Source: Centroscyllium fabricii (taxonomy: Eukaryota). Taken from it: a DNA stretch of 64,000 nucleotides. Under the pieces are notes generated by a model. It did no database searches and was not told where the DNA came from. It saw only the letters and a program-made list of their open reading frames with translations. This document shows, piece after piece, positions 1-55,655 of this stretch (its first letter is position 1; each line of letters opens with the position of its first letter). The DNA lies in assembly GCA_051313645.2 (NCBI GenBank), contig JBNRSN020000014.1, forward strand, positions 8,184,001 through 8,248,000, written 5' to 3'. The position numbers and the translations under genes are program-made.

Positions 1-49
1 GAAAGTTAACATGCAGGAACAGCAAGAAATGAGGAAAGCAGGTATCTCT

Positions 50-245
50 CATCTCCCCCGCCTTCTAGCCTGTCGCTGTTCTTTCAGCCCCCCCCTTCCC
101 CAGCCCCCACAAGCTTTAGAATCTATCTCCCCTCCCGGCTTCTCTAGTTTTGAAGAAAGATCATCGACCTGAAACGTTAGCCCTGTTCCTGTCCCCACCG
201 ATGCTGCCTGGCCTGCTGAGTTTCTCCAGTGTTTTCGATTGTTTT
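50..245 (+). mobile_element. Penelope-type terminal fragment with degenerate hammerhead
   Basis: ttgaagaaagatcatcgacctgaaacgttag...gatgctgcctggcctgctgag, inserted in a CR1 RT fragment. Confidence 0.5.
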
Positions 246-249
246 TTTA

Positions 250-899
250 GGAAAGCAAATGGTGTGTTGGCCTTTATTACAAGAGGATTTGAGGATAAGA
301 GTAAAGACATCTTACTGCAATTATATCAGGCCCTGGTGAGACCACACCTGGAGTATTGTGGACAGTTTTGGTCGTCTTGCCTAAGGAAGGATATACTTGC
401 CATAGAGGGAGTGCAACGAAGGTTCACTAGGTTGATTCCTGGGATGAGAGGGTTGTCCTATGAGGAGAGATTGAGTAGACTAGGCCTGTATTTTCTAGAA
501 GAGTGAGAGGTGATCTCATTGAAACATATAAAATTCTTACAGGGCTTGACCGGGTAGATGCAGGGAGGATGTTTCCCCTGGCTGGGGAGTCTAGAACCAG
601 GGGTCACAGTCTCAGAATAAGGGGTCGGCCATTCAGGACTGAGATGAGGAGAAATTTCTTCACTCAGACGGTGGTGAATCTTTGGAATTCTCTGCCCCAG
701 AGGGCTGTGGAGGCTCAGTAGTTGAGTATATTCAAGATAGAGATCGATAGATTTATTTGGATATTAAGGGAATCGAGGGATATGGGGATAGTGTAGGAAA
801 GTGGAGATGAGGTGGATGATCAGCCATGATCTCATTGAATGGCGGAGCAGACTCGAGGGGCCGAATGGCCGACTCCTGCTCCTATTTCTTATATTCTTA
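250..899 (+). mobile_element. CR1 LINE 3' fragment
   Basis: [18 protein letters not shown]...RGDLIETYKIL...RTRGHSL; 3' stem-loop and (ttcttata) tail. Confidence 0.9.
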
Positions 900-2069
900 A
901 AAGACACTAACAAGTTATTTATAAGTAGGTTTTCATGTAACAAGGCTGCTATATCTTTACTTGCTTAGAGAGAGTTAATCTGTGTGCAATGCAGAGTTTG
1001 TTTTACAGTCTGATTCCGGGGGATTTGAAGAGATCCCAATGTAGAAATTGTGTGTCGGACATTATTTCCAAATTGCAATGAACCAAAAACAGCTGGGCTT
1101 CGGGATTGAAATTTTGTTTAGAAATGTGAGCCTATCTTTCAGCACGTGGGTCAGGCAGTGCCTCCGGGGTTGCTGTAACTGTTCATAAAAATAGGAGAAT
1201 GGCTTTACATAGAAACATAGAAGATAGGAGCAGGAGTCGGCCATTCGGCCCCTCGAGCCTGCTCCGCCATTCGATGAGATCATGGCTGATCATCCAAATT
1301 CAGTACCCTGTCCCTGCCTTCTCCCCATATCCCTTGATCCCTTTAGCCTTAAGAAATATATCCAACTCCTTCTTGAATATATTTAATGAATTGTCCTCCA
1401 CTGCTCTCTGTGGTAGAGAATTCCACAGCTTCACCACTCTCTGGGTGAAGAAATTCCTCCTCATCTCTGTCCTAAATGGTTTACCCCTTATCCTTAGGCT
1501 TTGTGTGGTACAGAGGGGTGGACATGGCTGTCCACCTCCTGAGAATCCCTGTTCAAATCCAGCCCAGTTCAACCGGATCAAAGTCCCTACTGCAGTCCTG
1601 TAATGGGTCTGGAAAGTCTCCATTCAGTTATTTGTGGCCAGGGGCACACTGTAGAAGCCTGCTACTAAACTGGCAGCGTGGTTTGAAGAGGCTGCAAGCT
1701 TGATACGGTGGTAATTGCAAAGAATTCCCACATTGGTTCAGTAGGAGATGACTTCTGAGGTTGGAGCTGAACCATGCTGTTGGGCCAGAATACAGCGACC
1801 TTTACTTCGCAGCGAGCTGACCTGTACCAAGCTGGGAATGTTGACATAAGAACATAAGAATTAGGGGGAGTTGGCTATTCGGCCCCTCGAGCCTGCTCCA
1901 CCATTCAATAAGATCATGGCTGATAGGAAGATAGAAGAAACATAGAAGATAGGAGCAGGAGTCGGCCATTCGGCCCTTCGAGCCTGCTCCGCCATTCAAT
2001 GAGATCATGGCTGATCTACCTCATCTCTACTTTCCTGCCCGATCCCCATATCCCTGGATTCCCTTAATA

Positions 2070-2308
2070 CAGGTTGAACACCGTTAATCTGGCACGGGCG
2101 GGACCAGGCCTGTGCCGGTATACCGAAGAATGAAGCCATCCAGTGCACATGCACGCACCATTCAAAATGGCCACCGCGAAATTATGAATGATCTGCGCTT
2201 GCCGTTCGGCGCATGCGCAGATCATTCGCCGAAGCATCAATCACGGCGGCCATTTTGCGCACTGAAGCTGCCGGCTTTTCGGTTACCGGATTAACGGTCT
2301 TCAACCTG
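2070..2308. mobile_element. Tc1/mariner (Tigger-like) MITE
   Basis: TA-CAGGTTGAACACCGTTAATC...GATTAACGGTCTTCAACCTG-TA; excision restores the host CR1 sequence. Confidence 0.85.
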
Positions 2309-2896
2309 TATTCAAAAATCTATCGCTCTCTGTCTTGAATGCACTCAACGACTGAGCCTCCACAGCCCTCTGGGCTAGAGAATTCCAAAGATTCACCACC
2401 CTCTGAGTGAAGAAATTCCTTCTCATCTCAGTCCTAAATGGCCGACCCCTTATTCTGAGACTGGGCACCTGTTTGGTTCCCCAGCACTAAAACCTCTCGC
2501 CTTATTGAACGCCAAATTAATAAAAAGAGAAAAACTTCAGAATACAGCTTGTGAGTGACATGATAGTTATTTTACTTTGTGAGCATTGCATTTCGTAATT
2601 ATATGACTCTTTGCAATGCTACTTTCAATTGCCTTTTGCATTCGATTTCAGAACCTGGTCTCTATTGCAAAGCAGTCACAATGGTATAATGCATCAGTGT
2701 TCAATTTTCTTGTCATCTGAAATTTATTTTAAAGTGTAGAAAAATTGTTTAAAGAAAAAAATGTTAAGCTTGTGTTTCCTCCTGTTTGTTCCTTCCGATC
2801 CCCCCCCCCCCCCAGCAGCCCCCACCTCCGAGGTTGTGACTCATGCTGGGGTACAGCTCCACCGACTCCGGCCTCCCTATTTCTTATGTTCTTAAT

Positions 2897-3652
2897 GGGC
2901 CAGAAATTCGGGTCGGAGGCTTGCCGCGTGTGCAACCCTCCAAAGTGCACTTACGGAGCGGAGCGCGCCTGCCGTTCTCGATTTCACCCACTTGAAATCC
3001 CGATCCAGAGGCCTGCTGAAAGGCCGGCGCGTCGCGCTGATGCAACTGAACGTCGGAGTTAGTGCGAGGGATCGCGCGGGATCACGTGGTCCACGGGGAG
3101 CCAATTGGAGCAAAGAATGCTCCATTCATAAGGTTGACAGGAAGAGCTGTCAAACGTATGAATACTACAGCCCCAAAACTACACTAAATCTTAAAATAAA
3201 TTTTTAAAAAACAGCACATTAATGACTATGTATCAATGACATAAATTAGCTATTTTAAACAAATTAAACATTTTGAAAAAAATATTTAAAGTATTTAACG
3301 GGCCTACAAATCAACTTACCTTTCCTTAAAGTTTTTAAAACTGGAAAAACCTGTGGAAAAAAAATGTTTAAATTGAATAAAATAAAGACTTACCTGATGA
3401 AATCCACTCCTTGCGCTTGAAAATATCAGCCGTAAATATTTCAAATACTTACCCTGATACAAACCTGTGACAAAATCGGAAGTTCATTGCGCACCTCCTG
3501 CTGCGCAGGCCAACGCGCTCCGGCTCCTGACCCCTCCAGTCAGGGGATCGGAATTGCCGGTTTCGCGCACATGCCAGAAACTGGAAGTTCCGAGGGGCCC
3601 ACGCGTGAGTACACCGTCTGTACTCGTGCGTTGGGCCCCTAATTTCTGGGCC
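2897..3652. mobile_element. Non-autonomous TIR element (possibly PIF/Harbinger-type)
   Basis: gggccagaaattcggg ... ccctaatttctgggcc; GC-rich ends and AT-rich core. Confidence 0.7.
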
Positions 3653-4294
3653 ATTAAGATACTGAGGGGACTCGACAGGGTAGATGCAGGAAGGATGTTT
3701 CCACTCGTGGGGGAATCTAGAACTCGGGGGCATAGTTTCAGAATAAGGGGTCGCCCTTTTAGAACTGAGATGAGGAGGAATTTCTTCTCTTGAGGGTAGT
3801 AAATCTGTGGAACGGAGGCTGGGTCATTAAATACATTTAAGGTGGAGATCGACAGGTTTTTGCAAGATAAGGGAGTGAAGGGTTATGGGGAGCGGGCAGG
3901 GAAGTGGCTTTGAGCCCAAGATCAGCCCTGATCTCATTGAATACACCCACAGCGCTTGGGATGACGTTGTTGGGCTTTTGCTACAAAACGCAGCCCCTCC
4001 CTCCCTCGGAAAACTCACCCAGTTTCAGGGAGTTGTAAACCCATGTCCAAAGATGTGCGGGTTAGGTTGATTGGCCATGATAAATTGACCCTTAGTGTTA
4101 GGGGGATTACATATGTGGGGGTTACGGGGAAAGGGTGGGATATGTGTCTTTGCAAGCTCGATAGGGAGCGAGGGATATGGGGAGAGGGCAGGGATAGGGT
4201 ACTGGGTTTGGATGATCAGCCATGATCTCATTGAATGGCGGAGCAGGCTCGAAGGGCCGAATGGCCTACTCCTGCCCCTATCTTCTATGTTTCT

Positions 4295-4735
4295 ATGACC
4301 AGAAAGTTGATTGGACGATACTCTCTGGAGTTTAGAAGAATGAGAGGTGATCTTATTGAAACATAAAAAATTCTGAGGGGGATTGACAGGGTCGATGCTG
4401 AGAGGTTCTTTCCCCTGGCTGGAGAGTCTAGAACCAGGGGGCATAGTCTCAGGATAAGGGGTCGGCCATTTAGGGCTGAGATGAGGAGGAATTTCTTCAC
4501 CCGGAGGGTGGTGAATCTTTGGAATTCTCCGCCCCAGAGGGCTGTGGAGGCGGAGTCGTTGAGTATATTCGAGGCGGAGATAGATAGATATTTAGACTCC
4601 AGGGGAGTCAAGGGATATGAAGATTGGGCGGGAAAGTGGAGATGAGGTAGAAGATCAGCCATGATCTTATTGAATGGCGGAGCAGGCTCGAGGGGCCGAA
4701 TGGCCGACTCCTGCTCCTAGTTATGTTCTAATGTT
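4295..4735 (+). mobile_element. CR1 LINE 3' fragment
   Basis: Same RT C-terminus and 3' UTR as the other copies. Confidence 0.85.
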
Positions 4736-5559
4736 CTCCCCCCTCCCCTTGTGCTTTCTTCGTGTGTGCGAGGACATTGAATGTCAGCAGCTTATTCAAC
4801 TGTAGCAGAAGGTATCCTAGCTGAGCCTGATCATGTTGTACCCAAGTTCCGCACGTTTGGCCAGGAACCTCCTGAATAGTGAGCAAGAGCCAAGAATTCA
4901 AACCAATCGGAGCTCCTCAGTTGCCAGCCCAGCTCAGTCAGCACTGACTGGGAGTGGAACCTGGAGCCTCCCTGCTTTGTATGGCTCAGTTGCAAGTTGG
5001 CCTGTGCTGAAGCATTGGGGAGCCTCGTCTTGCCTGGTGCTGATGTTCAGAAGCCGGCTATAGCGCCAGTGTTGCCAGCACTTCCAAAATGAATTAAACC
5101 GGTGGAAGCCCACCCATGGTACCTGCTGCCCAGTGCAGTGTGTACAAAAGGCAAGGATGTCTGTAGTTCATCACTGAACAATCCCAGTGCTCTGTAATTC
5201 AGTATTCAGAGGCTAATGCTCGGAACTAGATTCTGAAACACACCCGTGATTGCTGTTTTGTAATTACAGACATTTTTGGTGCATCTTTGGTCAGGCGTCT
5301 AGTTTAACATTCGAATTTGACACAGGTGCTGTCTAAATGCAAGCCTTTCATTTGTTTGAAAAGAGTGGACGAAGAGACGCAATGAATCAGGAAGTAGTTA
5401 GTTTACACCAGCCTGGGTTCTAAAAGAAGTGAAGGTCGAGGGCAGCGCGGGGTTGCTCGGTTTTCGAGTCCTGAGCTAGAGTCGGAAGCTGAGTGACGGG
5501 CCATGATTCCAACACTGAGGATCAGGGAGACCGTGATTTCTATTTTGAAGTGCAGCCGT

Positions 5560-5739
5560 CAATGTTCCCCCTAATTTTTTTTGAGGGGGGGGCGGGGAAG
5601 AGATGTGCGGTTCCTTTAATGGGCTGCGTGGCCCGTTCAAAACTTCACGTATTCGCGAAATACCCATGGAAAAGCCGGTGCGCGGCCTGCATGGGACCTC
5701 CAGACGGCTGCGCAGCCGCTCGGCTTAGCGGGAACGTTG
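5560..5739. mobile_element. hAT-type MITE inserted in a Deu-SINE
   Basis: caatgttccc...gggaacgttg TIRs. Confidence 0.65.
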
Positions 5740-6329
5740 GTAGTCCCTGCTGTAATGTGGGAAACGCGGCAGCCAATTTGCGCACAGCAAGCTCCCACAA
5801 ACAGCCGCGTGATAATGACCAGATGATCTGTTTTGGTGATGTTGAATGAGGGAGCAATATTGGTCCTGGGTTAACTCCTCTGCTCCTCTTCGAATCGAGC
5901 CATAGGAGCTTTTCCGTCCACCCGAGAGAGCAGATGGGGCCTTAGTTTAACGTCTTATCTGAAGGAACAAGGCCTTTTGCAGTATCAATAAAATAAAGAC
6001 CAGAAAGGCTACGATGGCAAGAGATTGATCAGAGCCTAAAGGGAAATAAGCGCTCCATAGCCAATGAAGTACGTTTTGAAGTATAGTCCCTGTTGTAATG
6101 GGGGAAACGTGGCAGCCAATTTGTGCACAGCAAGCTCCCACAAACAGCAATGTGATAATGACCAGATAATCTGTTTTAATGATGTTGGATGAGAGATAAA
6201 TATTGTCCCAGGACACCAGGGAGAACTCTCCTGTGCATCTGCGAAATAGTGCCTGTGGGATCTTTTATGTCCAGCTGAGAGAGCAGACAGGGCCTCAGTT
6301 TAACGTCTCATCCGAAAGACAGCACCTCT

Positions 6330-6688
6330 GACAGTGCAGCACTCCCTCAGTACTGCCCCTCCGACAGTGCGGCGCTCCCTCAGTACTGCCCCTCCGACAA
6401 TGCGGCGCTCCCTCAGTACTGCTCCTCCGACAGTGCGGCGCTCCCTCAGTACTGCCCCTCCGACAGTGCGGCGCTCCCTCAGTACTGCCCCTCCAACAGT
6501 GCAGCGCTCCCTCAGTACTGCCCCTCCAACAGTGCAGCGCTCCCTCAGTACTGCCCCTCCGACAGTGCAGCGCTCCCTCAGTACTGCCCCTCCGACAGTG
6601 CGCCGCTCCCTCAGTACTGCCCCTCCGACAGTGCGCCGCTCCCTCAGTACTGCCCCTCCGACAGTGCGGTGCTCCCTCAGCACTGCAC
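6330..6688. repeat. 33-bp minisatellite (about 11 units) inside a Deu-SINE (6045-6735)
   Basis: Unit ctccctcagtactgcccctccgacagtgcggcg. Confidence 0.95.
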
Positions 6689-7419
6689 TGGGAGTGTCAG
6701 CCTGGATTATGTGCTCTAATCTCTGGTGTGGGGCTTGTTACAGGCCTTTTGCCCTTCACCAGCTTTCTCAAAGAAAACCAGTTCTGAAGCCAGAGATTTG
6801 CCTGCTCTTTCAGTGAGTTGCTCTCGTGTAGTGAGCTGTAATTAAACCTCTGATGGTGCGGTGTTTAGGAGCACCTGCCATTCCTCTCCATACTGAGCAT
6901 TCAGTCTCTCTCACTGTTTGGGGAGGGAGGTGCTGAGTAAGGCCCTGCATTTCCCCACAGGGGGAAGGATGGGGAAACCAAAGGGAGATAGCCCAGAGTT
7001 TGATTTTTTTGTGCGGTCTCCCAAGAGGTGAAAGAGCGGGTCGTTGACACCCTCTCCCTCCCACCACCATCCCCTGAGGATAGAATTGGATTGTTGATCA
7101 CTGAAGGAAGAAAGGCAGACTTGCATTTCTATAGCGCCTTTCACGACCACCGGACGTCCCAAAGCGCTTCATGGCCAGTGAAGTACTTTTGGAGTGCGGT
7201 CGCTGTTGTAATGTAGGAAACGCGGCAGCCAATTTGCGCACAGCAAGCTCCCACAAACCAGATAATCTGTTTCAGTGATGTTGATTGAGGGATAAATGTT
7301 GGCCAGGTCACTGGGGTAACTCCCCTGCTCCTCCTCTTGATAGTGCCATGGAATTTTTTACATTCACCTGAGAGATCAGACGGGGCCTCGGCTTAACGTC
7401 TCATCAGAAAGACAGCAGT

Positions 7420-8150
7420 TTCTTCTTTCGTATGGTAGTGGCAAAGCAAATCAGCCGTCAATATCTAAGTCAGATATCCAGGCCAGCATGGATATCCTGT
7501 AGGCTGCCTGCGCATCTCCTCTGAGGGCAGGGCTCACTGATGTGCTCCAGGGTCTGATCAGGTGCTCCACAGTCACATGATGGGGATACTTTAATCTTCA
7601 TCTATGGAGAAGGTGGCAGCCTCTACCACGGCCGGTTCTGAGGCGGTTAATGGTTGTCTGCTGTTTGTGAGGAAGGTTTGATCCTTCAGGTTGTACTGTG
7701 GGGTCCTCTATAAGGAATTCATTCTGTATGTGGCAGTTCTTCCAAGGATTTCGCCATCGGTCATCAAGGCTGAGGCGAGATCGCTGAAGGGCTTCAGCGA
7801 TGGTCCAAAAAGACTTTCTAGATTTGAGACGGCTTGATGGTAGGTTGTTCAAGTCAGCCTGGATTGGCATGTCTTTGCTGGTGTAGCGGTTGTGTTCATT
7901 GGAGACTGCATATTTGCGGCGTAGGTGTGGTGGTGCGATGTTTGCAAGCACGGGCAGCCAAGGTGTTGGTGTCGATAAAAGCGTATCAGTGATAATTCTC
8001 ATAGTAGAATTCAGCTGGACATCAACAGATTTGACATGTGGACTTGATAGACATGCCGGAGAGCAATAATCCGCTGTAGAGTACACCAGGGCGAGTGCTG
8101 CCATACGGAGGGTTTGAGCGTCTGCTGGGTGGGCGTGTGTGCTGTGAGGA
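7420..8150 (-). mobile_element. Vingi/Ingi-like LINE 3' fragment
   Basis: TLRMAALALVYSTADYCSP...QLNSTMRIITDTLLSTPTPWLPVLANIAPPHLRR; 3' end ccatacgaaagaagaa. Confidence 0.7.
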
Positions 8151-9116
8151 GGATGTCGAGAAACCCCAGTATAATTTGGACAGGTTGGGTGATTGGGCAG
8201 ATGCAGTATAACGTGGATAAATGCGAGGTTATCCACTTTGGTGTCAAAAACAGGAAGGCAGATTATTATCTGAATGGCAATAGATTGGGAAAAGGGGAAG
8301 TGCAGCGAGACCTGGGTGTCCTTGTGCACCAGTCGCTGAAAGTAAGCATGCAGATGCAGCAGGCGGTGAAGAAGGCGAATGCTATGTTGGCCTTCATAGC
8401 GAAAGGGTTTGAGTACAGGAACAAGGATGTCTTGCTGCAGTTGTTCAGGGCCTTGGTGAGACCACACCTTGAGTATTGTGTGCAGTTTTGGTCTCCTTAT
8501 CGAAGGAAGGATGTTCTTGCCATGGAGGGAGTGCAGCGAAGATTCACCAGACTGATACCTGGGATGGCAGGAATGACGTATGAGGAGAGATTGGGCTGAT
8601 TAGGCTTATATTCACTGGAGTTTAGAAGAATGAGAGGGGATCTCATTGAAACTTATAAAATTCTAACAGGACTGGACAGACTGGATGCAGGAAGGATGTT
8701 CCCGATGGCCGGGGAGTCCAGGACCAGGGGTCACAGTCTAAGGATAAGGGGTAAACCATTTAGGACAGAAATTAGGAGGAATTTCTCCACCCAGAGAGTG
8801 GTGAACCTGTGGAATTCTCTACCACACAAGGCAGTTGAGGCCAATTCATTAAATATATTCAAGAAGGAGTTGGATATATATAGAATCATAGAATCCCTAC
8901 AGTGCAGATAGAGGCCATTTCGGCCCATTGAGCCTGCACCGACACACATCCCACCCTATCCCCGTAACCCCACATATTTAATCCCCCTAACACTAAGGGT
9001 CAATTTATCATGGCCAATCAACCTAACCCACACATCTTTGGACTGTGGGAGGAAACCGGAGTACCTGGAGGAAATCCACGCAGACACGGGGAGAATGTGC
9101 AAACTCCACACAGATA

Positions 9117-9343
9117 AATGCAAGAAGTCACACAACACCAGGTTATAGTCCAACAGTTTTATTTGAAATCACAAGCTTTCGGAGCGCTGCTCTTTCCTCA
9201 GGCAAAAGAGAAGTTCATCTAAATAAAGCACATAAATGTGCTTTCTTTAGATGAACGTCAAATAAAGCTGTTGGACTATAACCTGGTGTTGTGTGACTTC
9301 TTGCATTTGTCCACCCCAGTCCAACACCGGCACCTCCACATGA
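9117..9343. mobile_element. Same inverted-repeat element inserted in an HE1-type SINE
   Basis: Same arms as 14688; TSD tccacacagata / tccacacaaata. Confidence 0.7.
9168..9204 (-). ncRNA. Minimal hammerhead motif, second copy
   Basis: Minus strand CTGAGGA-AA-GAGC-agc-GCTCC-GAAA-GC-TT-GTGA; stems more degenerate. Confidence 0.5.
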
Positions 9344-10119
9344 TGTCCACACAAATAGTCCCCCAAGGCCGATTTGAACCCAGGTCCCTAGCGCTGTGAG
9401 GCAACAGTGCTAACCACTATGCCACCGTGCCGCCCTCTTAAGGCTAAAGGGATCAAGGGATATGGGGAGAAGGCAGGGACAGGGTACTGAATTTGGATGA
9501 TCAGCCATGATCTCATTGAATGGCAGAGCAGACTCGAGGGGCCGAATGGCCTCCTCCTGCTCCTATCTTCTGTGTTTCTATGCGGATCTGGTGAGTTTGT
9601 GGATCATGTTGACCCTACTCTTAGTTTCTTCCCAAGGTTCTGGAGATGCTGTCTAGATGACAGGGTGTGATCCAAGACAGTACTGCGCTGGAGTGTCAGC
9701 CTGGAATTTTGTGCTCCAGTCTCTGGAGTGGGACTTGAACCCACAACCTTCTGACTCAGAGGCGCGAGTGCTGGCCACCGAACCACGGCTGACACCTAGG
9801 GGTGAGAGGAGGGCTGTAGAGTCACCAAAAAAAACTTCAGCAAGCCTTTGGTCCCATCTCCCGACCTCTCCTTCTTTGGCTCTGCATCCATTCTCATTAC
9901 CCACCTGTGGAGCCTCTGGGAATGTTTTTTGACATTGAAGATGCCACATCAATGCAAGTTGTTAAGAATCTTGTCTCTAGTCGATGTGGCGCCACTGATC
10001 TTCCCGGATCAGCAGGACAGGGGGCTATCTGCGAGTTTTGGTGTTGCAAGGCGTACAATAACGGCCTGATCAATTATCCTACTACTTCCACTTGAACTGT
10101 GAAAACATACTGCAGTATA

Positions 10120-10617
10120 CAGGAAATGCTTTTATTATCCGGCACCGATGGGACCGGCGTGTTGCCGGTTGATCAAAAATTCCAGATGACGGGGAGGGTT
10201 TTCTACCGAGGCTAGAAATGTGCAGTAATTGGGTACTCACCTACAGAATGTTGTGTTAAATGGATGGTGGAAGATGCTTGATTAAGTACAGCACTGCCAG
10301 TTGAGGAATGCAGTGACTACCAGCAGTGTGGGAGACACACAGTACCCCTGTAAAATGGTGGATCAGAAGAGACTCCCGGCAGCGCGGGAGAGCCAGACTC
10401 CTGTTACAGGGGGATTGAGGTGTTCCGACTCCCAACAGCGCCAAGAAGCCGAGTAGTGGCAGTTTGGAGAACTACCCCCACTGACTAACTCGGCCACTGC
10501 GGGAGACTCGGACTCGGCAACATTGCTGGTTGTTGAGGTGTTGTTTTCGGAGCGAGGATTTTGCCGGTTAATAGAGAATTCTGGATATTTAGGTGCCATT
10601 TAAATGAGAATATCCTG
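10120..10617. mobile_element. Degenerate Tigger-like MITE
   Basis: TA-caggaaatgcttttattatccggcacc ... ggtgccatttaaatgagaatatcctg-TA. Confidence 0.55.
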
Positions 10618-11569
10618 TAGTTATAGACTTCGTACATCCAAACTTGGGAGAGAGCAGTTTACGCTGTATAACACCAGGGTGAAGTCCTGATGGGTGCAGG
10701 TCTGTCACCAGTGGCAGGAGCAACTTGAGGTTATAGTGTATTGGTTTCATTGCAGTTTCTCCTACTGTGTATTGGTAAGTGGGCGGCAAAACACTGCATT
10801 GGGTGTGAATAATTGAAGAGCCTTGTTATGATTAAGGGTGGTTTCTTTTTCTTAAATGCCAGCTTAATTTCCTCGTGAGCTTTGTTAAAGATAAACTTCC
10901 AACTTTGAATGCACATAGAAACATAGAAGATAGGAGCAGGAGTCGGCCATTCGGCCCCTTGAACCTGCTCCGCCATTCAATGAGATCATGGCTGATCATC
11001 CAAATTCAGTACCCTGCCCCTGCCTTTAAAAAAAAAAAAAAAAAAAGAATTGTTCCATTTCCCCAACTCCCTCCATTTCCCCCCTCCTCACCTTTGATGT
11101 CTGATTTCAAACCCCATTTAAAATCTTTTCATCTGCACTGTGAGGACACGTCTCAAAGTAAGGGTTTTGCACCTATTGCCATTCACTACCTTGGAGGGAC
11201 TGATGCTCAGTTTTATGTCGCAGTTATGCCTTCACACTCCAGGCTGAGACAAAGAGAGCGCGATCCCTGTCGACATGTCAAAAGGCCATCTTAAAACTTT
11301 ACTTTTCCACAAGGTGTTTTTTGCTGGAACCTTTATTAACTGCCCGCCTGATCTGACCTGCCCCTCGACGGTCAGTAGGGTGGCTGCAAAGGCAGGGATT
11401 TTTATAAACGTTACTGGACGAGTAATCCCGAAGATTGGACTAATAATCCAGACAATGCGAGTGCAAATCCCACCAAGGCAGGCTGAGAATTTGAATTCAG
11501 TTTATTAAATAACCGAATTTGGAAATCTAAAAGTGAGCATGAAGCTGTCAGATTGTTGTAAATACCCAA

Positions 11570-12110
11570 TTCTCTTACGCAGTCCCTCGGAACCGAGGAT
11601 GACTTGCTTCCACATTAAAAATGAGTTCTCAGGTGACTGATGAGTCCAATGCGGGACCTACAGTCTCTGTCACAGGTGGGGCAGACGGTGGTTGAAGGGG
11701 TGGGTGGGTGGGGTGCTCGGGTTGACGTGCGCTCCTTCCGCTGCCTGCGCTTGGCTTCCACTTGCTCCCGGCGAAGAGACTCGAGGTGTTCAGCATCGTC
11801 CCGGATGCTTCTCCTCCACTTTGTGCGGTCTTGGGCCAGGGATTCCCAGCTGTCGGTGGGGATGCTGCAGTTTTTCAAGGAGGCTTTGAGGGTGTCCTTG
11901 AAGCGTTTCCTCTGCCCACCTGGGGCTCTCTCGCCGTGTCGGAGCTCCGAGTAGAGCGCTTGTTTTGGGAGTCTCGAATCGGGCATGCGGATGATGTGAC
12001 CCATCCATCGGAGCTGATTGTGCGTGGTCAAAGCTTCGATGCTGGAGATGTTGGCCTGAGCGAGAACACTGACGTCGGTGCGCCTATCCCGCCAATGGAT
12101 TTGCAGGATT
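11570..12110 (-). mobile_element. RTE-clade LINE 3' end nested in an older SINE-like repeat (about 11410-12290)
   Basis: ILQIHWRDRRT...LRWMGHIIRMPDSRLPKQALYSEL...GGQRKRFKDTLKASL; C-terminal CPTC...SRIGLISHLRTH. Confidence 0.85.
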
Positions 12111-13139
12111 GGTTCGCTAATGTCCTTCAGGGAAGGAAGCCGGCCGTCCTTACCCGGTCTGGCCTGTATGTGACTCCAGTCCCACACCAACGTCCCTCAC
12201 AAACTGCCATCTGAAGTGGCTTAGCAAATCAGGATGGGCGATAAATGCTGGCCTTGCCAGCGACGCCCACGTCCCCAAGAATGAATTTAAAAAGTTATTT
12301 TTTCCAGAAACAGAATCTGATTTCACAGGATGATTGAACAGCAGGTTTTATCTGCGTTAATGTCTATCCTGAGCTCCTGGTGCATGATAAGCATAGAACC
12401 TCAGCTGCCCACTCTTGGATTCCCCTGTAATGTTGCCAGCCTCGAGCAGTGTGACGTGACTCTGGTATCTGCTTGCTGACTCGAACTGCCAGCCTGACAC
12501 TGGTGGTGAAGTGTGCAGGGCTCCGCTCTCAGCCTGTAAGCTTCATACTGTGGCCGCCACCACCGCAAAGTCTCTGCCGGCTATCTGTAAGTGCAAAAGC
12601 TGTCAAGTTGAGACTATTTCAGTGGAGCAGAGCTAGGTAATAAAGGGGCCTGTGAATAAAGCCTGAAGCTGGCTGTGGGAGAGGAATGTCTTTTCCTGCA
12701 CCAGGCTAGGTTTGAACTCTGGAAAAACAAACCGGCCAGGGAGGAGGAAAATTAGCTGTGGTTCCTGCCCCTGGCCGCTGCCCACTTACCCAGCGCAGAA
12801 AATGCTCATGTGTGGCCTGTTAAAGAATGAAAGACGTGCATTTCTGTAGCACTTTTCATGACCTAAAGCACTTTACAGCCAATGAAGTACTTTTTGAAGT
12901 GTAGTCACTGTTGTAATGTAGGAAACATGGCTGCCAATTGCGCACAGCAAGCTCCCACAATAAACAATGTGATAATGACCAGATAATCTGTTTTAGTGAT
13001 GTTGATTGAGGGATAAATATTGGCCAGGACACCGGGGAGAATGCCTGTGATCTTCTTCGAAATAGTGCTAAGCGATCATTGACACCCATCTGAGAGGGCA
13101 GACGGGCCTCAGTTTAACGTCTCATCCGAAAGACAGCAC

Positions 13140-13528
13140 CTCCGACTGCAGCACTCCCTCAGTACTGCACCCCCACCCCCACCCCCACCCCCATGACCGT
13201 GTAGTACTCCCTCAGTACTGCCCCTCCGAGAGTGCGGCGCTCCCTCAGCACTGCACCCTCACCCCCACGACAGTGCGGCGCTTCCTCAGTACGGCCCGTC
13301 CGACAGTGCAGCGTTCTCTCAGTACTGACCCTCCGACAGTGCAGCGCTCCCTCAGTACTGCCCCTCCGACAGTGTGGCGCTTCCTCAGTACTGTCGCTCT
13401 GACAGTGCGATGCTCCCTCAGTACTGCCCCTCCGACAGTGTGGCGCTTCCTCAGTACTGCCCCTCCGACAGTGCGGCGCTCCCTCAGCACTGCCCCTCCG
13501 ACAGTGCGGCACTCCCTCAGCACTGCAC
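13140..13528. repeat. 33-bp minisatellite (about 11 units) inside a Deu-SINE (12832-13633)
   Basis: Same unit, more diverged. Confidence 0.9.
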
Positions 13529-14687
13529 TGGGAGTGTCAGCCTAGATTTTTGTGCTCAAGTCTCTGGACTGGGACTTGAACCCAGAACCTTCTGGCTCGG
13601 ATGCGAATGTGCTACCCACTGAGCCACGGCTGAGGACGAGATCAGGTTTGCTTGTGAAGCCATGCACGGTTAACGAGACTACCAGTGATCCCCCCCCCCC
13701 CCCCTAGAGAAAGTGATCTGCCTTTATATAGAGCCTTATTCTCCGGCCATCCGAGCGTGGTTTCGCAACCAATGAGTTGACTTTTTTTTTGAAGTGTTAA
13801 GTAGGCACGTGCGACAGCTAACTTGTGCACAGCAAGATCCCACACAGATATGAGCAAAATGGCCAGTTAATCTGCTGCATCCAGAATAAAGAACAAGTTT
13901 TTGTTTAATTCATTCTCAGGATGTCGCTGGTAAGGCCAACATTTAACGCTCATCCCTCGTTACCCTGATTGAGGGCAGCTGGCACCTACGGCACTGCGCC
14001 CCAGCAAGAGCCCAGGAGCAGCGCAAACACAAAAGAGTGCGCAGCAGGGCAGTGAACATCTGAAAGGGTAATGTTGGTTCTGGGTGTGGCCCCTTCATCA
14101 GAACTCCTGAACAATGAATCATACCTGGAAAGTTAGCCTGTCCTTCAGATGTTAGTTCACCTGTTGTGCCATTTCTATTTCAAGCTTTTAGCCGCTTTTG
14201 CTTTTCACCTCTGGTTTGAACTCCGACCTGGCAGAGAATGAAAATACCATTGTCACAAGAGTCCTGTGCCACTGTTGCCCTTTGACTCGAATGCGCTTGC
14301 AGCTGCTGCTAAGTGCCAGGGCGAAAAGAGTGAAATAGAACAAAAGTATTTGGAGCAGGAGTCGGCCACACCGCCCCTCGAGCCTGCTCCGCCATTCAAT
14401 CAGATCACGACTGATCTTCAAACCCAACACTTTCCTGCCCGATCCCCATATCCCTCGATTCCCCGAGAGTCGTAAAATCTATCGAGCTCAGCCTTGAATA
14501 GACTCAACATCCACAGCCCTCTGGGGTAGAGAATTCCAAAGATTCACCACCCTCTGAGTGAAGAAATTCCTCCTCATCTCAGTCCTGAATGGCCGATCAC
14601 CTATCCTGAGACTGTGACCCCTGGTTCTAGACTCTCCAGCCAGGGGGAATCAACCTCTCAGCATCGACCCTGTCAATCCCCCTCAGA

Positions 14688-14866
14688 TGTAAGAAGTCAC
14701 ACAACACCAGGTTATAGTCCAACAGCTTTATTTGAAATCACTTCACCTGATGAAGGAGCAGCGCTCCGAAAGCTTGTGATTTCAAATAAAACTGTTGGAC
14801 TATAACCTGGTGTTGTGTGACTTCTTACAATTGTCCACCCCAGTCTAACACCAGCATCTCCACATT
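14688..14866. mobile_element. Short Penelope-derived inverted-repeat element inserted in a CR1 copy
   Basis: About 53-bp inverted arms (gtaagaagtcacacaacaccaggttatagtccaacag...) around the hammerhead; approximate TSD aatccccctcaga / aaccccctcaga. Confidence 0.7.
14743..14779 (+). ncRNA. Minimal type I hammerhead ribozyme motif (Penelope-type)
   Basis: TCAC-CTGATGA-A-GGAGC-agc-GCTCC-GAAA-GC-TT-GTGA: both core boxes, 5-bp stem II, TCAC/GTGA stem I, palindromic AGCT at helix III. Confidence 0.7.
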
Positions 14867-15053
14867 AACCCCCCTCAGAATCTTGTGTATTTCAATGAGA
14901 ACACGTCTCAGCCTTCTAAACACCAGAGTGTATAGGCTCATTCTACACAATCTCTCCTCATAAGATGAGATAAATCAGGAAAATAAAGAGGAAAAAACTG
15001 CAAATGCAGAGCAGGTGTAAAAGGGAAAGGCAGGAGCGAGGCTGTCAGTATCT

Positions 15054-15430
15054 AGAAACATAGAAACTAGGAGCAGGAGTCGGCCATTCAGCCCCTCGAG
15101 CCTGCTCCGCCATTCGATGAGATCATGGCTGATCATCCAAACCCAGCACCCTGTCCCTGCCCTCTCCCCATATCCCTCGATCCCTATCGAGCCTGCACTG
15201 ACACATATCCCACCCTATCCCCGTAACCCCCACATATTCCATCCCCCTAACACTAAGGGTTAATTTATCCTGGCCAATTAACCTAACCCGCACATCTTTG
15301 GACTGTGGGAGGAAACCCACGCAGACACGGGGAGAATGTGCAAACTCCACACAGATAGTACCGGAGGCCGGATTTGAACCCGGGTCTCCAGTGCTGTGAG
15401 ACAACAGTGCTAACCACTATGCCACCGTGC
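15054..15430 (-). mobile_element. HE1-type V-SINE with alternative CR1 tail (also 4041-4295, 31615-31996, 38207-38762, 45523-45922, 47982-48355, 61898-62288)
   Basis: Same head and V domain; the tail matches the 3' UTR of the young CR1 copies, ending (tttctatg)n. Confidence 0.85.
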
Positions 15431-16231
15431 CTCTAAAGGGGGAAAGGCAGGAGCGAGGCTGTCAGTATCTAAAGGGGAAAGGTAAGTTGTGATTTTTGGG
15501 GTGTGTTGCCTTCATCACAACTGGGATAAATCAGGAAGTGGGGTGGGTGAAGTGATGCCAAACCTGGGAGATGAGGAACCCCACAGTTTGAAAGTCCTGG
15601 GAAAGAAAGATGGATGTGGTGCCATGAACCTTGATTTAAATGCAGAAACAATGCAAGAAATAGCGAGAGATTTCCATATCTATCGCATCTTTCACAACCT
15701 CAGGATGTCCCAAGGCGCTTTGCAGCCAATGAAGTACTTATTTTTTGGAAATGCCAGTCACTGCTGTAATGTAGGAAACGCGGCAGCCAATTTGCGCACA
15801 GTAAGCTCCCGCAAACAGCAATGTGATGATGACCAGATAATCTGTTTTTAAGTGATGTTGGAAAAGGGATAAATATTGGCCCAGGACACCAGGGGGGACT
15901 CTGCTGCTTATCTTCAAATAGTGCTGCAGGATCTTTCCTGAGAGAGCAGACGGGGCCTCGGTTTAACGTTTCATCTGAAAGGCGGCACCTCAGACAGTGC
16001 AGCACTCCCTCAGCACTGGCACCGGGGTTTTTTTTGTGCTCAAGTCTCTGGAGTGGGATTTGAACCCACAACCTTCTGACTCAGAGGCACGGGTGTCACC
16101 CACTGAGCCACGGCTGAAAACGAAAGGTGTTTTTTTCCAGGGGAAATGCTACATATAATATTTGTGTAAACACTAACACTCCTGTCTCCATTTTTATCCT
16201 GGCAGATACTGCAGCGTGCTGAGTGGACACC

Positions 16232-17063
16232 ATGGCTCAGACCCTGCAAATGGAGATTCCGAACTTCGGGAATAACATCTTGGAATGTCTGAATGAGCAG
16301 CGGCTCCAGGGCCTGTACTGTGATGTTTCCATTGTTGTCAAGGGGCAGGCGTTCAAGGCGCACCGCGCGGTCCTGGCGGCGAGCAGCTCCTACTTCCGGG
16401 ACCTCTTCAGCTCCAACAACTGCACGAGCTTCGAGCTGCCCACCGCGGTGCAGCCGCAGTCCTTCCAGCAGATCCTGCTGTTCTGTTACACGGGCCGGCT
16501 CAGCATGAACATGGGCGACCAGTTCCTCCTGATGTACACGGCTGGCTTCCTCCAGATCCAGCAGATAATGGACAAGGAGACAGAGTTTTGCCTGAAGGTC
16601 AGCTCGCCGCGCTGCGACTCCCAGGGGCTCCACGGGGAGGAGACGCCCTCTGAGCCGCCGAGCCCCGCCCAACCCTCCCGCTCGCTGGCGGCCACCCCCC
16701 TCTCGCTGGTGTCGCGCGTCAAGACGGAGCAGGCTGAGTTGGACTCCGCGCAGTTCACCCCCATCGGCAAGCGCCTGTGGGACAACGGCCAGCGGGAGGG
16801 CAACGGCAGCATGGGTTCCAAGCTGGCTCGGGTTTCCCATGGAGCCCCCGCGGGCCGGCAGCAGGGGTGCGGAGCAGCGGGGCCAGGTAGTTCAGACCGC
16901 ACCAGTCCCGGCACCTCCAGTGCCTACACCAGCGACAGTCCCAACTCCTACCAAAACGAAGAGGACGAGGAGGAGGAGGGTGGCGAGGATATGACAGAGG
17001 AGCACTACAGACAGATCTGTAACATGTACACGATGTACAGCATGATGAATGTGGGCCAGCCAG
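16232..17063 (+). CDS. NACC1: NACC1 first coding exon (BTB/POZ domain + acidic linker)
   Basis: ATG at 16232 gives [59 protein letters not shown], near-identical to the vertebrate NACC1 N-terminus. Acceptor tttttatcctggcag ends at 16205; donor CAG|gtaagc after 17063 (phase 1). Confidence 0.95.
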
Positions 17064-17863
17064 GTAAGCCTGTGATCTGTTCGCCTGCTACTTACCAGTG
17101 GCACCATCGAGGTCGCTAATTTAAAGGGCAGTGGCTGCACTGGCTCCGTGTGATGACCCAACATTTTGTGTCTCTTGCCTCAGCTGTAACTGAGAATAAA
17201 CGCTGTGCACCTGGGCAGATCCATCTGGCGTCTCAATGGCGATGGGGAGTCATAGAGTTATAGAGTCATAGAGTTATACAGCACAGGAAGAGGCCCTTCG
17301 GCCCATCGTGTCCGTGCCGCCCATCGAGCCCTGTCTATTCTAAGCCCATTTTCCAGCACTTGGTCCGTAGCCTTGTATGCTATGGCATTTCAAGTGCTCA
17401 TCTAAATGCTTCTTGAATATTGTGAGGGTTCTTGCCTCTACCACCCTTTCAGGCAGCGAGTTCCAAATTCCAACCACCCTCTGGGTGAAAACGTTCTTCC
17501 TCAAATTCCCTCTAAACCTCAGGATTAAATTCCATTTGCCACTGTTCCGCCCATCTGACCAACTCGTCTATGTCGTCCTGCATGTTGCGGATTGCCTCCT
17601 CGCTATTTACCAACCCCCCAACGTTTGTGTCCTCTGCAAATTTACTGATCATGCCTTTTACATTAATATCTAAATCATTAATATAGACTACAGAGCTGAT
17701 CCTCCTCCAGTTTAACCAACCTCCTTTATCTAACAGCAGATTCCCAGGGTTTCCCCGGGTCCAGCTAGCCTGGGTGTGGGGATATTTATACCGTGGAGCG
17801 CAGTCTGGAGGGACTCAGTGTCACTTGTCAGCTGCACTCCTTTAAAAACACCTTCAAAAAGAA

Positions 17864-18660: not shown

Positions 18661-21600
18661 TGGCCCAGAAATTGGGGTCTCCACACGTGAGTACGGACGA
18701 GGCACTCACGTGTAGGCCATTCGAAAGTGCCGGTTTCCTGCATGCACTGCGCATGCGCGGGAAACCGGCACTTCCGTTCCCCGAACTAAGGGGTTACGCG
18801 GTGAAGCGCGTGCGCGGGAGCGTATTGCACTTACGCTTTTTTCACAGGTTTTTCTGTCCGGGTAAGTGAGAAAAAGTTAGACTCGAAAAAAGCAGGCGTA
18901 AGGCCGGCTTTTAACAAGGTAAGTGCTGAATTAATTCAAATTAAAACATTTTTTCCACAGGTTTATTATTTTTTAATACTTTAAAGAAAGGTAAGTTCAT
19001 TTTCAGCCCTGTTAGGAAAAATAATTAATTTTTTCAAAAATTTAAATTATTGTTTAAAATAGTTATTTCATGTAATTTATAGTTACAATTTATCGAACAA
19101 CGCCTGGGGCACGAACGCGGAACTGATCGAAAGTTCCTGCTCCGCCGATCTGGAATTCCTCACTGTAAAGTGCAGACCCTTCTACCTGCCTCGGGAATTT
19201 ACGGCCGTCATCTTCACTGCGGTCTACATCCCTCCACACGCAAATGCCAAACTGGCACTCAAAGATCTCCACAGGGCCATCAGCGAGCAGCAGACCACGC
19301 ATCAGGAGGGAGCCTTTATCGTGGCGGGGGACTTCAACCACGCTAACCTCAAATCGGTGCTACCAAAATTTCACAAGAATGTCTCCTGCCCCACGAGGGG
19401 CGAGAACACGCTGGACCAGGTCTACACCAACATTGCAGAGGCTTACAAAGCCATCCCGTGACCCCACCTCGGGAATTCCGACCACCTTTCACTGTTCCTC
19501 GCCCCAGCATACAAACCACTCATCAAAAGGGTGAAAGCTTCAGCCAAAACAGTCGGTATGGCCAGAAGGGGCAGTCTCAGAGCTACAAGACTGCTTCGAA
19601 CGCACTGAATGGAGCATGTTCGCTCACACGGACATCGAGGAATACGCATCCACAGTGCTTTTTTACATCAACAGCTGTGTCGAGGTGGTCACTACCCAAA
19701 AAACCATCAAGACATTCCCCAACCAGAAACCCTGGATGAGCGGGGAGGTCCGCTCGCTGCTGAAGGCGCGTGACACAGCTTTCAAATCTGGGGATGTGGC
19801 GGCTTACAGCACAGCCAGGGCCAACCTAAAGAGGGGTATCAGGTCTGCCAAACAAAATCAGACACTGAAGATAGAGGAACACTTTCACAACAACTCGGAC
19901 CCTCGACGTATGTGGCAAGGCATACAGTCCATCACGGACTACAAGTGCAGAAACACCAGCCCCCCGACCGGCGATGCCTCCCTACCGGAGGAACTCAACA
20001 ACTTCTACGCTCGCTTCGACAGGGACAACAGGGAGCCAGCCACCAAAGTCCTGCAATCCCCGGAAGACCAGCCATTAACACTGTCCTGCTCCGACGTTAG
20101 AGGTGCTCTACGTAGAGTGAACACATGGAAGGCCGCGGGTCCTGATGGCATCCCCGGCCGGGCACTCAAAGAATGTGCAGACCAACTGGCTGAAGTCTTC
20201 ACTGACATCTTCAACCTGTCACTGGCGAAGGCAGCTGTCCCTACGTGCTTCAAGACCACCACCATCATCCCTGTGCCCAAGAAAACGGCTGTGACGTGCC
20301 TGAACGACTACCGCCCTGTTGCACTTACACCCATTATCATGAAGTGTTTCGAGCGGCTGGTCCTGGCCCACATCAAAGCCAGCATCCCCGCCGCCCTGGA
20401 CCAATACCAGTTCGCCTACCGTGGGAACAGATCTACAGAAGATGCTATCACTACGGCTCTTCACTCTGCACTAAACCACCTGGATAGCAAAGATACGTAT
20501 ATCAGAATGCTGTTTATTGACTACAGCTCAGCATTCAACACCATCGTCCCCAGCAAATTGTCTACCAAACTCCTCACCCTCGGCCTGAACACCTCCCTCT
20601 GCAACTGGACCCTGGACTTCCTAACCAACAGACCACAGTCTGTGAAGTTAGGCAACCTCACCTCCCCCCCCCCCCCCCCCCCCTTACCCTGAACACGGGG
20701 GCCCCACAAGGTTGTGTGCTGAGCCCCCTCCTCTACTCCCTCTTCACTCACGACTGTGCGGCTGTCCATGGCTCCAACACGATCATCAAGTTTGCGGATG
20801 ACACCACGGTGGTTGGCCAGATCACCAACAACGACGAGTCAGCCTACAGGGATGAGATCCAGCGCCTTGTGGGTTGGTGTGCCGACAACAACCTGGCACT
20901 GAACACCAAGAAAACTAAGGAGATCATAGTGGACTTCCGGAGGACTGGAAGCAGAAGACACACCCCCATCTTCATCCAAGGGGCTGAGGTGGAAAGGGTG
21001 TCCAGCTTCAAGTTCTTCGGGGTCCACATTTTGGAAGATCTCTCCTGGTCACTAAACACCTCCTCTCTGGTTAAGAAGGCCCAACAGCGCCTGTACTTCC
21101 TAAGGAAGCTGAAGAAAGCCAGGCTGTCCAACTTCTACTGCTGCACAATAGAAAGCATACTGACAAGCTGCATCACTGTCTGGTATGGAAATTGCAGTAT
21201 CTCGGACTGGAAAACCCTGCAGCGGGTAGTCAAAACTGCCCAACGAATCACCGGTACACAGCTACCGTCAATGGAAAGCATCTACCTCAAACGCTGCTTA
21301 CGGAGGTCTCTGAACATTATTAAAGACCCCACACACCCCAGCCACAGTCTGTTCACCCCCCTGCTCTCCGGGAGACGCTACAGAGCAATTCGCACCCGCA
21401 CGACTAGATTTCAGAACAGCTTCTTCCCCAGGGCTGTCAGCCTCCTGAACTCTTTAAAAAAATAAAAAATAAAAAAAAATAAACTCCGGTACCTGCACAC
21501 CTGAAAATGTACTTTACTGTATGCAATTTGCATGTCATTTATTTGCACTACTCTCGGGAGAGTCGAGTCTTCGTCTCGTTGTATTGTACTAGTACTCTGC

Positions 21601-25230: not shown

Positions 25231-25515
<285 letters not shown>

Positions 25516-37475: not shown

Positions 37476-37844
37476 TCTTAGAAAAGGAGTTAATTGGCTC
37501 AGCAACACCTTTTTGGTGCAATTTTTAAAACCTTTGTCAATCCATTCAAGTTTTCTAAAGGCCTTACTCAGACTTTCCTCTCACGGCCTTGACCGGTTGT
37601 CACGGGGCGGTGACTCCCCCTTGGTGCAATTCCACCGACTGGGTCAGCCGTCTGGTACTTTGGCCAAGTAGCCGTTCTTCCTGTGTGTGAGCCCCAGACT
37701 GTGCGTGCCTTCTGGCTATTCGAGTGTGAGGGCCATCACTGCCAAGCCTGATGCTCACCTCGACTTGGCACCAGCAGACAGGAGACACCGGCTAGCAGTC
37801 AGGAGGAGGAGCCTGGCCTCCCCTTTCTGTTCGGCAAAGCGGCA

Positions 37845-38935
37845 ACCCAAACACCGATTGGGCGATCGCTTTGCAGAACACGTCCGTTCAGTCCGTATGG
37901 GTGACCCCGAGCTCCCGGTCGCCTGTCACTGTAATTCTCTGCTTCACTCCCACTCTGATCTCTCTGTCCTCGGCCTATTACATTGTTCCTCTGAAGCTCA
38001 GCGTAAACTCGGGGAACAAAACCTCATCTTCCAATTAGGCACTTTACAGCCCTCCGGACTCAATATCGAGTTCAACAATTTCAGATCATAACCCTTTACA
38101 TTTTTACCTTTTGTATTATCCACACCTTTGCCTCGGCCCTCCCCGCCCCCCCTTTTTTTTCTCCTACACGGCAGCTGTCTCCCATTCTGCCAGCGCATTT
38201 CACACCGGCACGGTGGCACAGTGGTTAGCACTGTTGCCTCACAGTGCCAGGGACCCGGGTTCAAATCCGGCCTCGGGTACTACCTGTGTGGAGTTTGCAC
38301 ATTCTCCCCGTGTCTGCGTGGGTTTCCTCCGGGTGCTCCGGTTTCCTCCCACAGTCCAAAGATGTGCGGGTTAGGTTGATTGGCCATGATGAATTGACCC
38401 TTAGTGCTAGGGGGATTGAATATGTGGGGTTACGGGGATAGGGTGGGATATAGAAAACATAGAAACTAGGAGCAGGAGTAGGCCATTCGGCCCTTCGAGC
38501 CTGCTCCACCATTCAATGAGATCATGGCTGATCATCCAAACCCAGTACCCCGCCCCTGCCCTCTCCCCATATCCCTCAATCCCTATCGAGCCTGCATCGA
38601 CACATATCCCACATATGTGTCGGTGCAGGCTCGATAGGAATCGAGGGATATGGGGAGAAGGCAGGGGCGGGGTGCTGGGTTTGGATGATCAGCCATGATC
38701 TCATTGAATAGCGGAGCAGGCTCGAATGGCCGACTCCTGCTCCTAGTTTCTATGTTTCTATGACTGTTAATGTCTCTTCTCGTCCCTTTGTTCTCTCCCA
38801 GCCCTCTTCTATCCTTCTTGTCTGTTTCATTTCAGTTTTGATAAAGGGTCCCGACCCGAAACGTTGACTCCTATTTCTCTCTTCACGGATGTTGCCTGAA
38901 CTGCTGAGTTTTTCCAGCATTTTCCGTTGTTACTC
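37845..38935 (+). mobile_element. Penelope-like element 3' part (GIY-YIG C-terminus), interrupted by SINEs
   Basis: KHRLGDRFAEHVRSVR...LPVACHCNS...EQNLIFQLGTLQPSGLNIEFNNFRS*; degenerate hammerhead ttgataaagggtcccgacccgaaacgtt near 38838-38865. Confidence 0.75.
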
Positions 38936-43643: not shown

Positions 43644-44014
43644 AACGACGACTTTTTTCCTTCCTGTTTAGTTACTTGCTGTCTAGCCTAGAAGCAACTG
43701 TTGGTGACATTAAACGACAGACTTGCCTTTCTATAGCGCCTTTCACAACCACCGGACATCCCAAAGCGCTTTACAGCCAATGAAGCACTTTTTTCAAGTG
43801 TAGTCACTGTTGTAATGTAGGAAACGCGGCAGCCAATTTGCGCACAGCAAGCTCCCACAAACCGTAATATGGTAATGACCTAGATCATCTGTTTTTGTTC
43901 TATTAATTGAGGGATAAATATGGGCCACGACACCTTGCTCGCTCTTGAAATCGTGCCGGGGGATCTTTTATGTCCGCATGAGTATTTTAACGTCTCATCC
44001 GAAAGACGGCACCT

Positions 44015-44408
44015 CTGACAGTGCGGCACTCCCTCAGTACTGCCCCTCCGACAGTGTGGCGCTCCCTCAGTACTGCCCCTCCGACAGTGCGGTGCTCCCT
44101 CAGTACTGCCCCTCCAACAGTGTGGCGCTCCCTCAGTCCTGCCCCTCCGACAGTGCGGCTCTCCCTCAGTACTGCCCCTCCGACAGTGCGGCACTCCCTC
44201 AGTACTGCCCCTCCGACAGTGCGGCGCTCCCTCAGTACTGCCCCTCCGACAGTGCGGCGCTCCCTCAGAACTGCCCCTCCAACAGTGCGGCACTCCCTCA
44301 GTACTGCCCCTCTGACAGTGCGGCGCTCCCTCAGTAATGCCCTTCCGACAATGCGGCGCTCTGTCAGTACTGCCCCTCCGACAGTGCGGCACTCCCTCAG
44401 TATTGCAC
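44015..44408. repeat. 33-bp minisatellite (about 12 units) inside a Deu-SINE (43718-44452)
   Basis: Same unit. Confidence 0.95.
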
Positions 44409-45059
44409 TGGGAGTGTCAGCCTGGAATTTTGTGCTCGAGCCCCTAGAGTGAACGAACACTTAAACTAACTTTCTTTTCCATTGAAGTCCAGGCCGATTT
44501 ACTATCGCCCGTTTAGCGCTACTGCCCGAGATCAATCTGATGTTTTCCGATGAGATTGCCCATTTCTGCTATTTCAATGCAGGTGTTAAATTGGTTAATC
44601 CCTTCTACTGAAACAGCAGACAGGGAGATGTCTTCGGATCCCGTTGAGCATTTGACCATTTTTATCACCAACATCTGTCTGCTCACCAGCCATAGTGCAG
44701 GTCCGTGTATGTTTCTTTGGTATAATGTGGGGGTAATTATGGTGCCCTGCTGAATCACAGAGACCTGGCAGGCCCTCATCTTGTGTCTCAGCCAGACTGA
44801 CAGGTGGGAGACTGCAGATGGTCTCGGGCACCACCCACTACTCGACTTAAGGTGAGGGCTCCTGCTCCCAGTCACCCCTCCTGGAAACAATGCCAGCTGT
44901 CACCATCAGCTGAGGACGGGACCTGGTGGCTTGCCCACCCAGACAAGTAACCTGCTTTCCACGCTTGGAGAATTTCTATCTTCAGCACATTATTCTAAAC
45001 ATCTTCTGGCTCCTGACAGTGTTTATGGAGTTAAAGGGACTGGATAAATGGAATCGTAG

Positions 45060-55457: not shown

Positions 55458-55655
55458 TGGGAGTGTTAGCCTGGATTTTTGTGCTCAAGTTTCTGGACTG
55501 GGACTTGAACCCACAACCTTCTGACTCAGAGGCGAGAGTGCCGCCCACTGATCCACGGCCGACTCTACGAATCCGTGGACGGAAAAAGAAAAGAAAAAAT
55601 AATATTTGGGAGTTAGTGAGAAATGCCGGTGGTCTGACACTGTTGATCTACTTAC

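Follow-up and report, generated by a model that had tools for sequence, protein, structure and literature searches.

A hairpin-shaped insert with a hammerhead ribozyme motif in Centroscyllium fabricii as the probable truncated end of a Penelope-like retrotransposon

A window of 64,000 nucleotides from the Centroscyllium fabricii genome contains a hairpin-shaped insert of 179 bases (14688–14866) with a minimal hammerhead-ribozyme motif inside. The insert is probably a single dead-on-arrival 3'-end insertion of an abundant Penelope-like retrotransposon (PLE), with the hairpin likely made during insertion and the hammerhead predicted to be inactive. Within a target-site duplication (TSD), an inverted stub and a sense pLTR piece that bears the motif share 4 nt where they meet, and a tail follows on one side (Table 1). 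The locus itself is of little weight, being one of very many decayed Penelope ends. Fold-back stumps may be mistaken for new elements, MITEs or microRNA precursors, and the many short fold-back copies of a young family would make both the formation of inverted pLTRs and the in vivo cutting by Penelope hammerheads testable computationally.

Table 1. Coordinates of the insert, its host and neighboring gene, and a related insertion in the 64-kb window
Feature	Position	Strand	Basis
Further copy of the family, inserted in a SINE-like repeat	9117..9346	+	Sequence comparison
LINE ORF2 copy, 3' part, serving as host repeat and interrupted by the insert	14330..14962	-	Reading frame matched on both sides
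Left TSD, original host sequence	14675..14687	+	Match to empty host copy
Inverted 5'-truncated pLTR stub, antisense of 14776–14829	14688..14741	-	Arm complementarity
4-nt overlap (microhomology) common to inverted arm and sense pLTR	14738..14741	.	Upstream continuation of sense strand
Sense 5'-truncated pLTR	14738..14832	+	Sequence comparison, public-run contigs
Minimal type I hammerhead motif, predicted to need a dimer for helix III	14743..14779	+	Strict descriptor
Tail of about 34 nt beside a single arm; marks the family's second 3' terminus	14833..14866	+	Contig loose ends
Right TSD, 12/13, last 10 exact	14867..14879	+	Sequence
NACC1-like BTB coding exon, open frame	16232..17116	+	E 2e-64 to 3ga1

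The two inverted arms (14688–14741 and 14776–14829) are 54 nt each and complementary at 53 of 54 positions. The insert has no reading frame, and its predicted fold reaches -95 kcal/mol (z -16.5), a stability equaled by none of 200 shuffles. The flanking duplication is identical at 12 of 13 positions with the final 10 bp exact, which makes it a TSD of 10–13 bp, and it is single at empty host-repeat sites. There are 15 other matches to the host repeat in the window; four end early, and all 11 that cover the site have the target once, with sequence similar to the right flank continuing past it in nine. The left TSD has the exact letters of the single site in the closest empty host copy (92% identical). 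The TSD-flanked insert with inverted arms reported in an earlier note on this DNA, made from the sequence alone, is confirmed by the arm complementarity and by the empty sites. Two points of that description are corrected. Positions 14830–14866 are tail and so belong inside the element, and 14738–14741 are common to the arm and the sense strand. The latter are an overlap because, in contigs from 4 of 4 public sequencing runs, the sense strand continues upstream of 14738 with shared sequence that is not that of the arm.

The hammerhead motif consists of a 4-bp helix I (14743–14746 paired with 14776–14779), a core at 14747–14753 followed by an extra A at 14754, a 5-bp helix II with a 3-nt loop (14755–14759/14763–14767), GAAA at 14768–14771 and a palindromic AGCU at 14771–14774. 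Cleavage is predicted between 14775 and 14776, and the cut after 14775 given previously agrees with the layout of the descriptor. A strict descriptor (match 14747–14775) finds one match in the window and none in 150 random 64-kb sequences, both strands included. The descriptor match and the published feature set uphold the earlier assignment to the Penelope-type minimal type I hammerheads with palindromic helix III. No hammerhead family was returned by an Rfam search of the insert at E up to 10; matches to MIR821 and MIR396 were rejected, being far below gathering score and caused by the long hairpin.

The inverted arms and the TSD would also suit a MITE or fold-back DNA transposon, its arms serving as terminal inverted repeats and the hammerhead-like centre being there by chance. 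The arms are not terminal here, however, since about 34–37 nt of tail follow one of them. Junctions also differ between copies, sense sequence extends upstream, and the absence of the motif from the random windows argues against chance. Such an origin is hardly credible.

Variants reaching at least 3% inside the motif include N7 (35% in run X1) and loop II (19% in X1), both of them sites free to vary. A variant in helix I (38% in run X8) retains pairing as G-U, and one CpG (C11.1 and G12) varies at about 10%. The core was expected to be better conserved than its flanks, but this is unsupported by the listed variable positions, which number 1 of 11 in the core and 14 of 51 downstream (Fisher p 0.27; the count excludes position 14740, which falls in the overlap). 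The variant pattern suits selection in master copies, without proving it.

In the insert, an equilibrium folding model gives the arm pairing a probability of 0.987 and helix I one of 0.0013, the latter rising to 0.75 once the arm is left off. The same model predicts a cleavage-ready fraction of about 2e-4 in the insert vs. 0.13 without the arm. Intermolecular helix III is predicted at only -2.5 kcal/mol, and a descriptor search of the 64-kb window finds no second sense hammerhead motif as a tandem partner. Minimal hammerheads of metazoan PLEs are described, in the available part of PMC4209133, as inactive in monomers and of low activity in dimers. Because the 54-bp stem takes the 3' strand of helix I and a tandem partner is lacking, neither cleavage nor function is expected in pre-mRNA, and the hammerhead of the 179-base copy is predicted to be folded shut and inactive. 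The ribozyme, formerly called intact-looking, is thus intact in sequence and not in predicted fold, where the arm takes the 3' strand of helix I.

The host of the insert is a LINE-like repeat whose minus-strand reading frame is broken by the insert and matched on both sides of it. We take this LINE to be a CR1 element; searches for a name gave no Pfam, PDB or named Atlas match. About 1.3 kb downstream of the insert lies a BTB coding exon provisionally assigned to a NACC1-like gene by its match to 3ga1, with an acceptor-like AG at 16204–16205. Further exons of this gene lie near 25270 and 32700, and no upstream NACC1 exon or CpG-island promoter was found in 1–16,200. The insert is likely intronic. 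Its sense orientation to the NACC1-like exon stands as first described, and the position within an intron is to be read as likely only, with no upstream exon in that stretch.

An insert in this orientation, about 1.3 kb before an acceptor, could be a co-opted intronic RNA element, either a ribozyme or a dsRNA substrate for editing or dicing, that acts on NACC1 pre-mRNA, and conserved intronic hammerheads do occur in amniotes, according to excerpts of PMC6155905. The insertion is, however, young (arms 53/54) and sits inside another repeat, and the sole certain RNA run gave one 253-nt contig of sense pLTR, not of the hairpin. Introns in any case harbour many of the Penelope-like elements of sharks (30% in whale shark; 10.1101/443036, as excerpted). 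Co-option is therefore given almost no credence.

Several other repeats occur in the window. A long non-LTR retrotransposon remnant in several frames (19063–21465, plus strand; RVT_1 E 1.3e-12) lies in an intron of the NACC1-like gene. A SINE-like element at about 15055–15439 is enclosed by a perfect 32-bp direct repeat (15023–15054/15440–15471), an unusually long target duplication. Arrays of a G+C-rich 33-bp minisatellite lie inside a dispersed repeat at 6325–6686 and 13207–13526, and similar arrays are found near 43900–44450 and 53900–55500. Two SINE-like repeat heads stand head to head at 38450–38761 and are 88% self-complementary over about 320 nt. A minus-strand frame at 11615–12196 ends in a C2H2-like motif and is presumably the C-terminus of an RTE-type LINE.

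The second insertion of the family lies 5.5 kb from the first, with a different junction and the hammerhead on the opposite strand. Its TSD is about 12 bp, and all 10 other host copies that span the site have it once (the count skipped one match). The tail is the same, and the inverted arm starts at the same boundary as in the 14688–14866 insert, about where pLTR and tail meet. In this copy the inverted arm exceeds the sense arm in length, and the hammerhead, changed at N7 and broken at G10.1, lies in it in antisense. The sense arm is without hammerhead and resumes about 6 nt past the predicted cut site, and a nested 44-nt palindrome (9213–9256) is found at the junction.

The family extends well beyond the window. 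Among the public runs listed, the insert stretch is present at 0.63–0.81 of its words in at least 14 runs of 7 organisms; runs X16–X24, with small word shares, were left out of the evidence. Contigs, and contigs only, were examined for 4 of the 24 listed runs, which may come from other species; they number 41,050, 4,586, 7,466 and 1, and the family is very abundant among them. The exact insert pattern has 0 loci in each of the metagenome, viral and prokaryote collections. Among 19 listed of 458 loose-end rows (439 further), 3' ends fall at 14833–14836 in 2 of 4 runs and at 14864–14865 in 3 of 4. Agreement at these ends is low (0.32–0.47), which points to two termini about 31 nt apart, with many different flanks beyond.

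Joints from arm to sense strand are all different among the 15 listed of 81, with 1–3 contigs each; they carry the mark 'between: not known', and contigs break in repeats. Pieces bridging the junction of the 14688–14866 copy number 0 among 25 listed of about 53,800, and in three runs the depth at 14740 is below 0.2% of that at 14768, a rough figure since depth is not copy number. As seen from the second copy in the window and from the contigs of public runs, a new junction arises with each insertion of the family. A few low-depth joints go back within the pLTR, e.g., 14826 to 14778 and 14811 to 14782, and may point to partial tandem copies that occur rarely in other members of the family.

These results bear on the proposal of the earlier note that the hairpin is the unit of a non-autonomous, retrozyme-like family, the 179-nt RNA being transcribed, cleaved and re-inserted by Penelope enzymes. 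The TSD, the non-coding insert and the intact motif are compatible with such a family. Sequence acting in cis within the pLTR can be enough for mobilisation in trans (PMC3846280, in part), and vertebrate retrozymes are reported as pLTR-derived in excerpts of a preprint (bioRxiv 10.64898/2026.07.22.740005). The insert site, however, has no tandem array, and there is a single sense hammerhead in 64 kb. Flanks after the tail are mixed in contigs, the junction is not seen to recur in the second copy or in the listed contig pieces (0/25), and the hairpin is predicted to block helix I. The proposal, at odds with the differing junctions of the second copy and the contigs and with the missing array, is very improbable.

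No RT/GIY-YIG frame tied to the pLTR is present in the insert, and searching for proteins by means of the pLTR's single open leader frame, which is a weak test, gave one candidate and no scored match. Elsewhere in the window, a short frame end at 37830–38090 (plus strand) is GIY-YIG-like (Atlas 0.94; PF01541 on 46% of the cluster; no Pfam match); it probably represents the 3' remnant of another Penelope-like family and lacks the insert's pLTR.

Insertion by Penelope machinery, as suggested before, is likely, from a layout that matches published PLE insertions. In the steps proposed here, the GIY-YIG endonuclease would nick both target strands 10–13 bp apart, and element RNA would be reverse transcribed from each free 3' end, starting from about 14829–14832 (the end of the pLTR) for the top strand and from about 14865 (the end of the tail) for the bottom strand. 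Both cDNAs would end early, after about 54 nt and about 129 nt, and would anneal via 4 nt made complementary by the hammerhead's own helix I. Repair fill-in would then complete the joined cDNAs and create the TSD. These steps of a two-primed insertion are deduced from end products, the geometry alone being observed. In the anole PLE, the available part of PMC11167929 describes both target strands as nicked and extended, and two reverse transcription start sites that bound the tail.

The inverted arm of a truncated Penelope insertion may alternatively come from fold-back self-priming of one cDNA or from later rearrangement. Self-priming has been proposed for palindromes at inverted Penelope junctions (excerpts of PMC3846280), the second copy has its nested palindrome at the junction, and at variable position 14827 the arms agree within each window copy (n = 2). 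Against fold-back copying, each arm has sequence absent from the other, the longer arm of the second copy is the inverted one, and both of the two inverted arms begin at the edge of the tail. The arms also differ in 2 of 2 copies at a family-variable position (14726/14791), the sole arm-to-arm mismatch in both and in opposite directions, which hints at two RNA templates. A deaminase-hotspot reading of this mismatch was rejected, as the other AGCT (14771–14774) is not listed as variable. Fold-back or rearrangement is considered unlikely. Two target-primed cDNAs account better for arms that each hold sequence missing from the other, and for inverted arms that begin beside the tail in both copies.

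The predicted cut comes right before 14776, and the end of the inverted arm coincides exactly with the complement of that base. The arms might be separate target-primed cDNAs, possibly from two RNAs, with the end of this inverted arm at 14776 produced by run-off from hammerhead-cut RNA, a reading that we hold to be rather doubtful. Of the 19 possible junctions whose overlap reaches 4 nt or more, 2 end at 14776, and microhomology alone, which also explains the arm end, yields it about one time in ten. The sense arm starts at 14776 in 2 of 15 listed joints, with p about 0.015 (uniform over 80 places, post hoc, and with rows chosen by the tool, 15 of 81). In the accessible sections of PMC11167929, the anole PLE hammerhead is protein-dependent and dispensable for insertion in vitro, with no RNA ends at the cut. 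Open-literature searches found no papers that test PLE arm ends or truncation against the hammerhead cut site, and in the portion of PMC6155905 available sharks are mentioned for the hammerhead name only. If run-off does occur, arm ends clustered at the base after the cut across the whole genome would give the first in vivo trace found of cleavage by Penelope hammerheads.

Among known systems, PLE insertions typically have an inverted 5'-truncated copy at the 5' end and a 30–40 bp tail at one end, according to parts of two accounts (PMC8557442; PMC8969392). Adineta PLEs show overlap between inverted and direct pLTR, with a tail of 31 bp and TSDs of 8–10 bp (PMC3846280, in part). With canonical EN+ PLEs (Penelope/Poseidon, Neptune), as these excerpts portray them, the insert shares the head-to-head inverted pLTR stub overlapping the sense pLTR, an inverted 5'-truncated copy being directly at the 5' end in 2 of 2 window copies and in at least 15 joints of the type in contigs. 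Also shared are the one-sided tail of about 34 nt (14833–14866, with two family 3' termini), short TSDs (10–13 bp and about 12 bp) with variable 5' truncation, and the minimal type I hammerhead in the pLTR. The truncation is extreme in comparison with canonical PLE insertions: all coding sequence is gone, and the ribozyme sits between arms that pair into a hairpin of 54 bp. The published inverted-pLTR-plus-tail layout makes the insert, most probably, an already known kind of Penelope terminal product, the outcome that the earlier note had itself set against its retrozyme proposal.

The minimal hammerheads of metazoan PLEs (Cervera and de la Pena 2014, PMC4209133, as excerpted) have, like that of the insert, an intact core, an extra base between 9 and 10.1, G10.1-C11.1, a 4-bp helix I, a palindromic 15.2–16.2 and no monomeric helix III. 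Helix II is 5 bp in the insert vs. 7–8 bp in Schistosoma families and 6 bp in D. virilis (same excerpts), and, unlike in those hammerheads, helix I of the insert is predicted to be out-competed by the arm. Searches of the open literature found no description of the hammerhead motif of this family. Animal non-LTR retrozymes are, like the insert, short, non-coding and pLTR-related, with a type I hammerhead, in the available text of PMC7229834 and of the preprint on vertebrate retrozymes (bioRxiv 10.64898/2026.07.22.740005). They form head-to-tail tandem repeats of a fixed unit, have mostly canonical hammerheads and yield circular RNAs (PMC7229834, in part). The insert, in contrast, is a single head-to-head product, and no fixed unit is seen in the second copy or the listed contig pieces.

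The insertion course proposed here also resembles L1 twin priming with 5' inversion in its two target-primed cDNAs, microhomology join and one TSD. Second priming in L1 takes place deep within the RNA, and the parts are without overlap. Here, in contrast, both arms start near the 3' end, and so overlap and form a hairpin.
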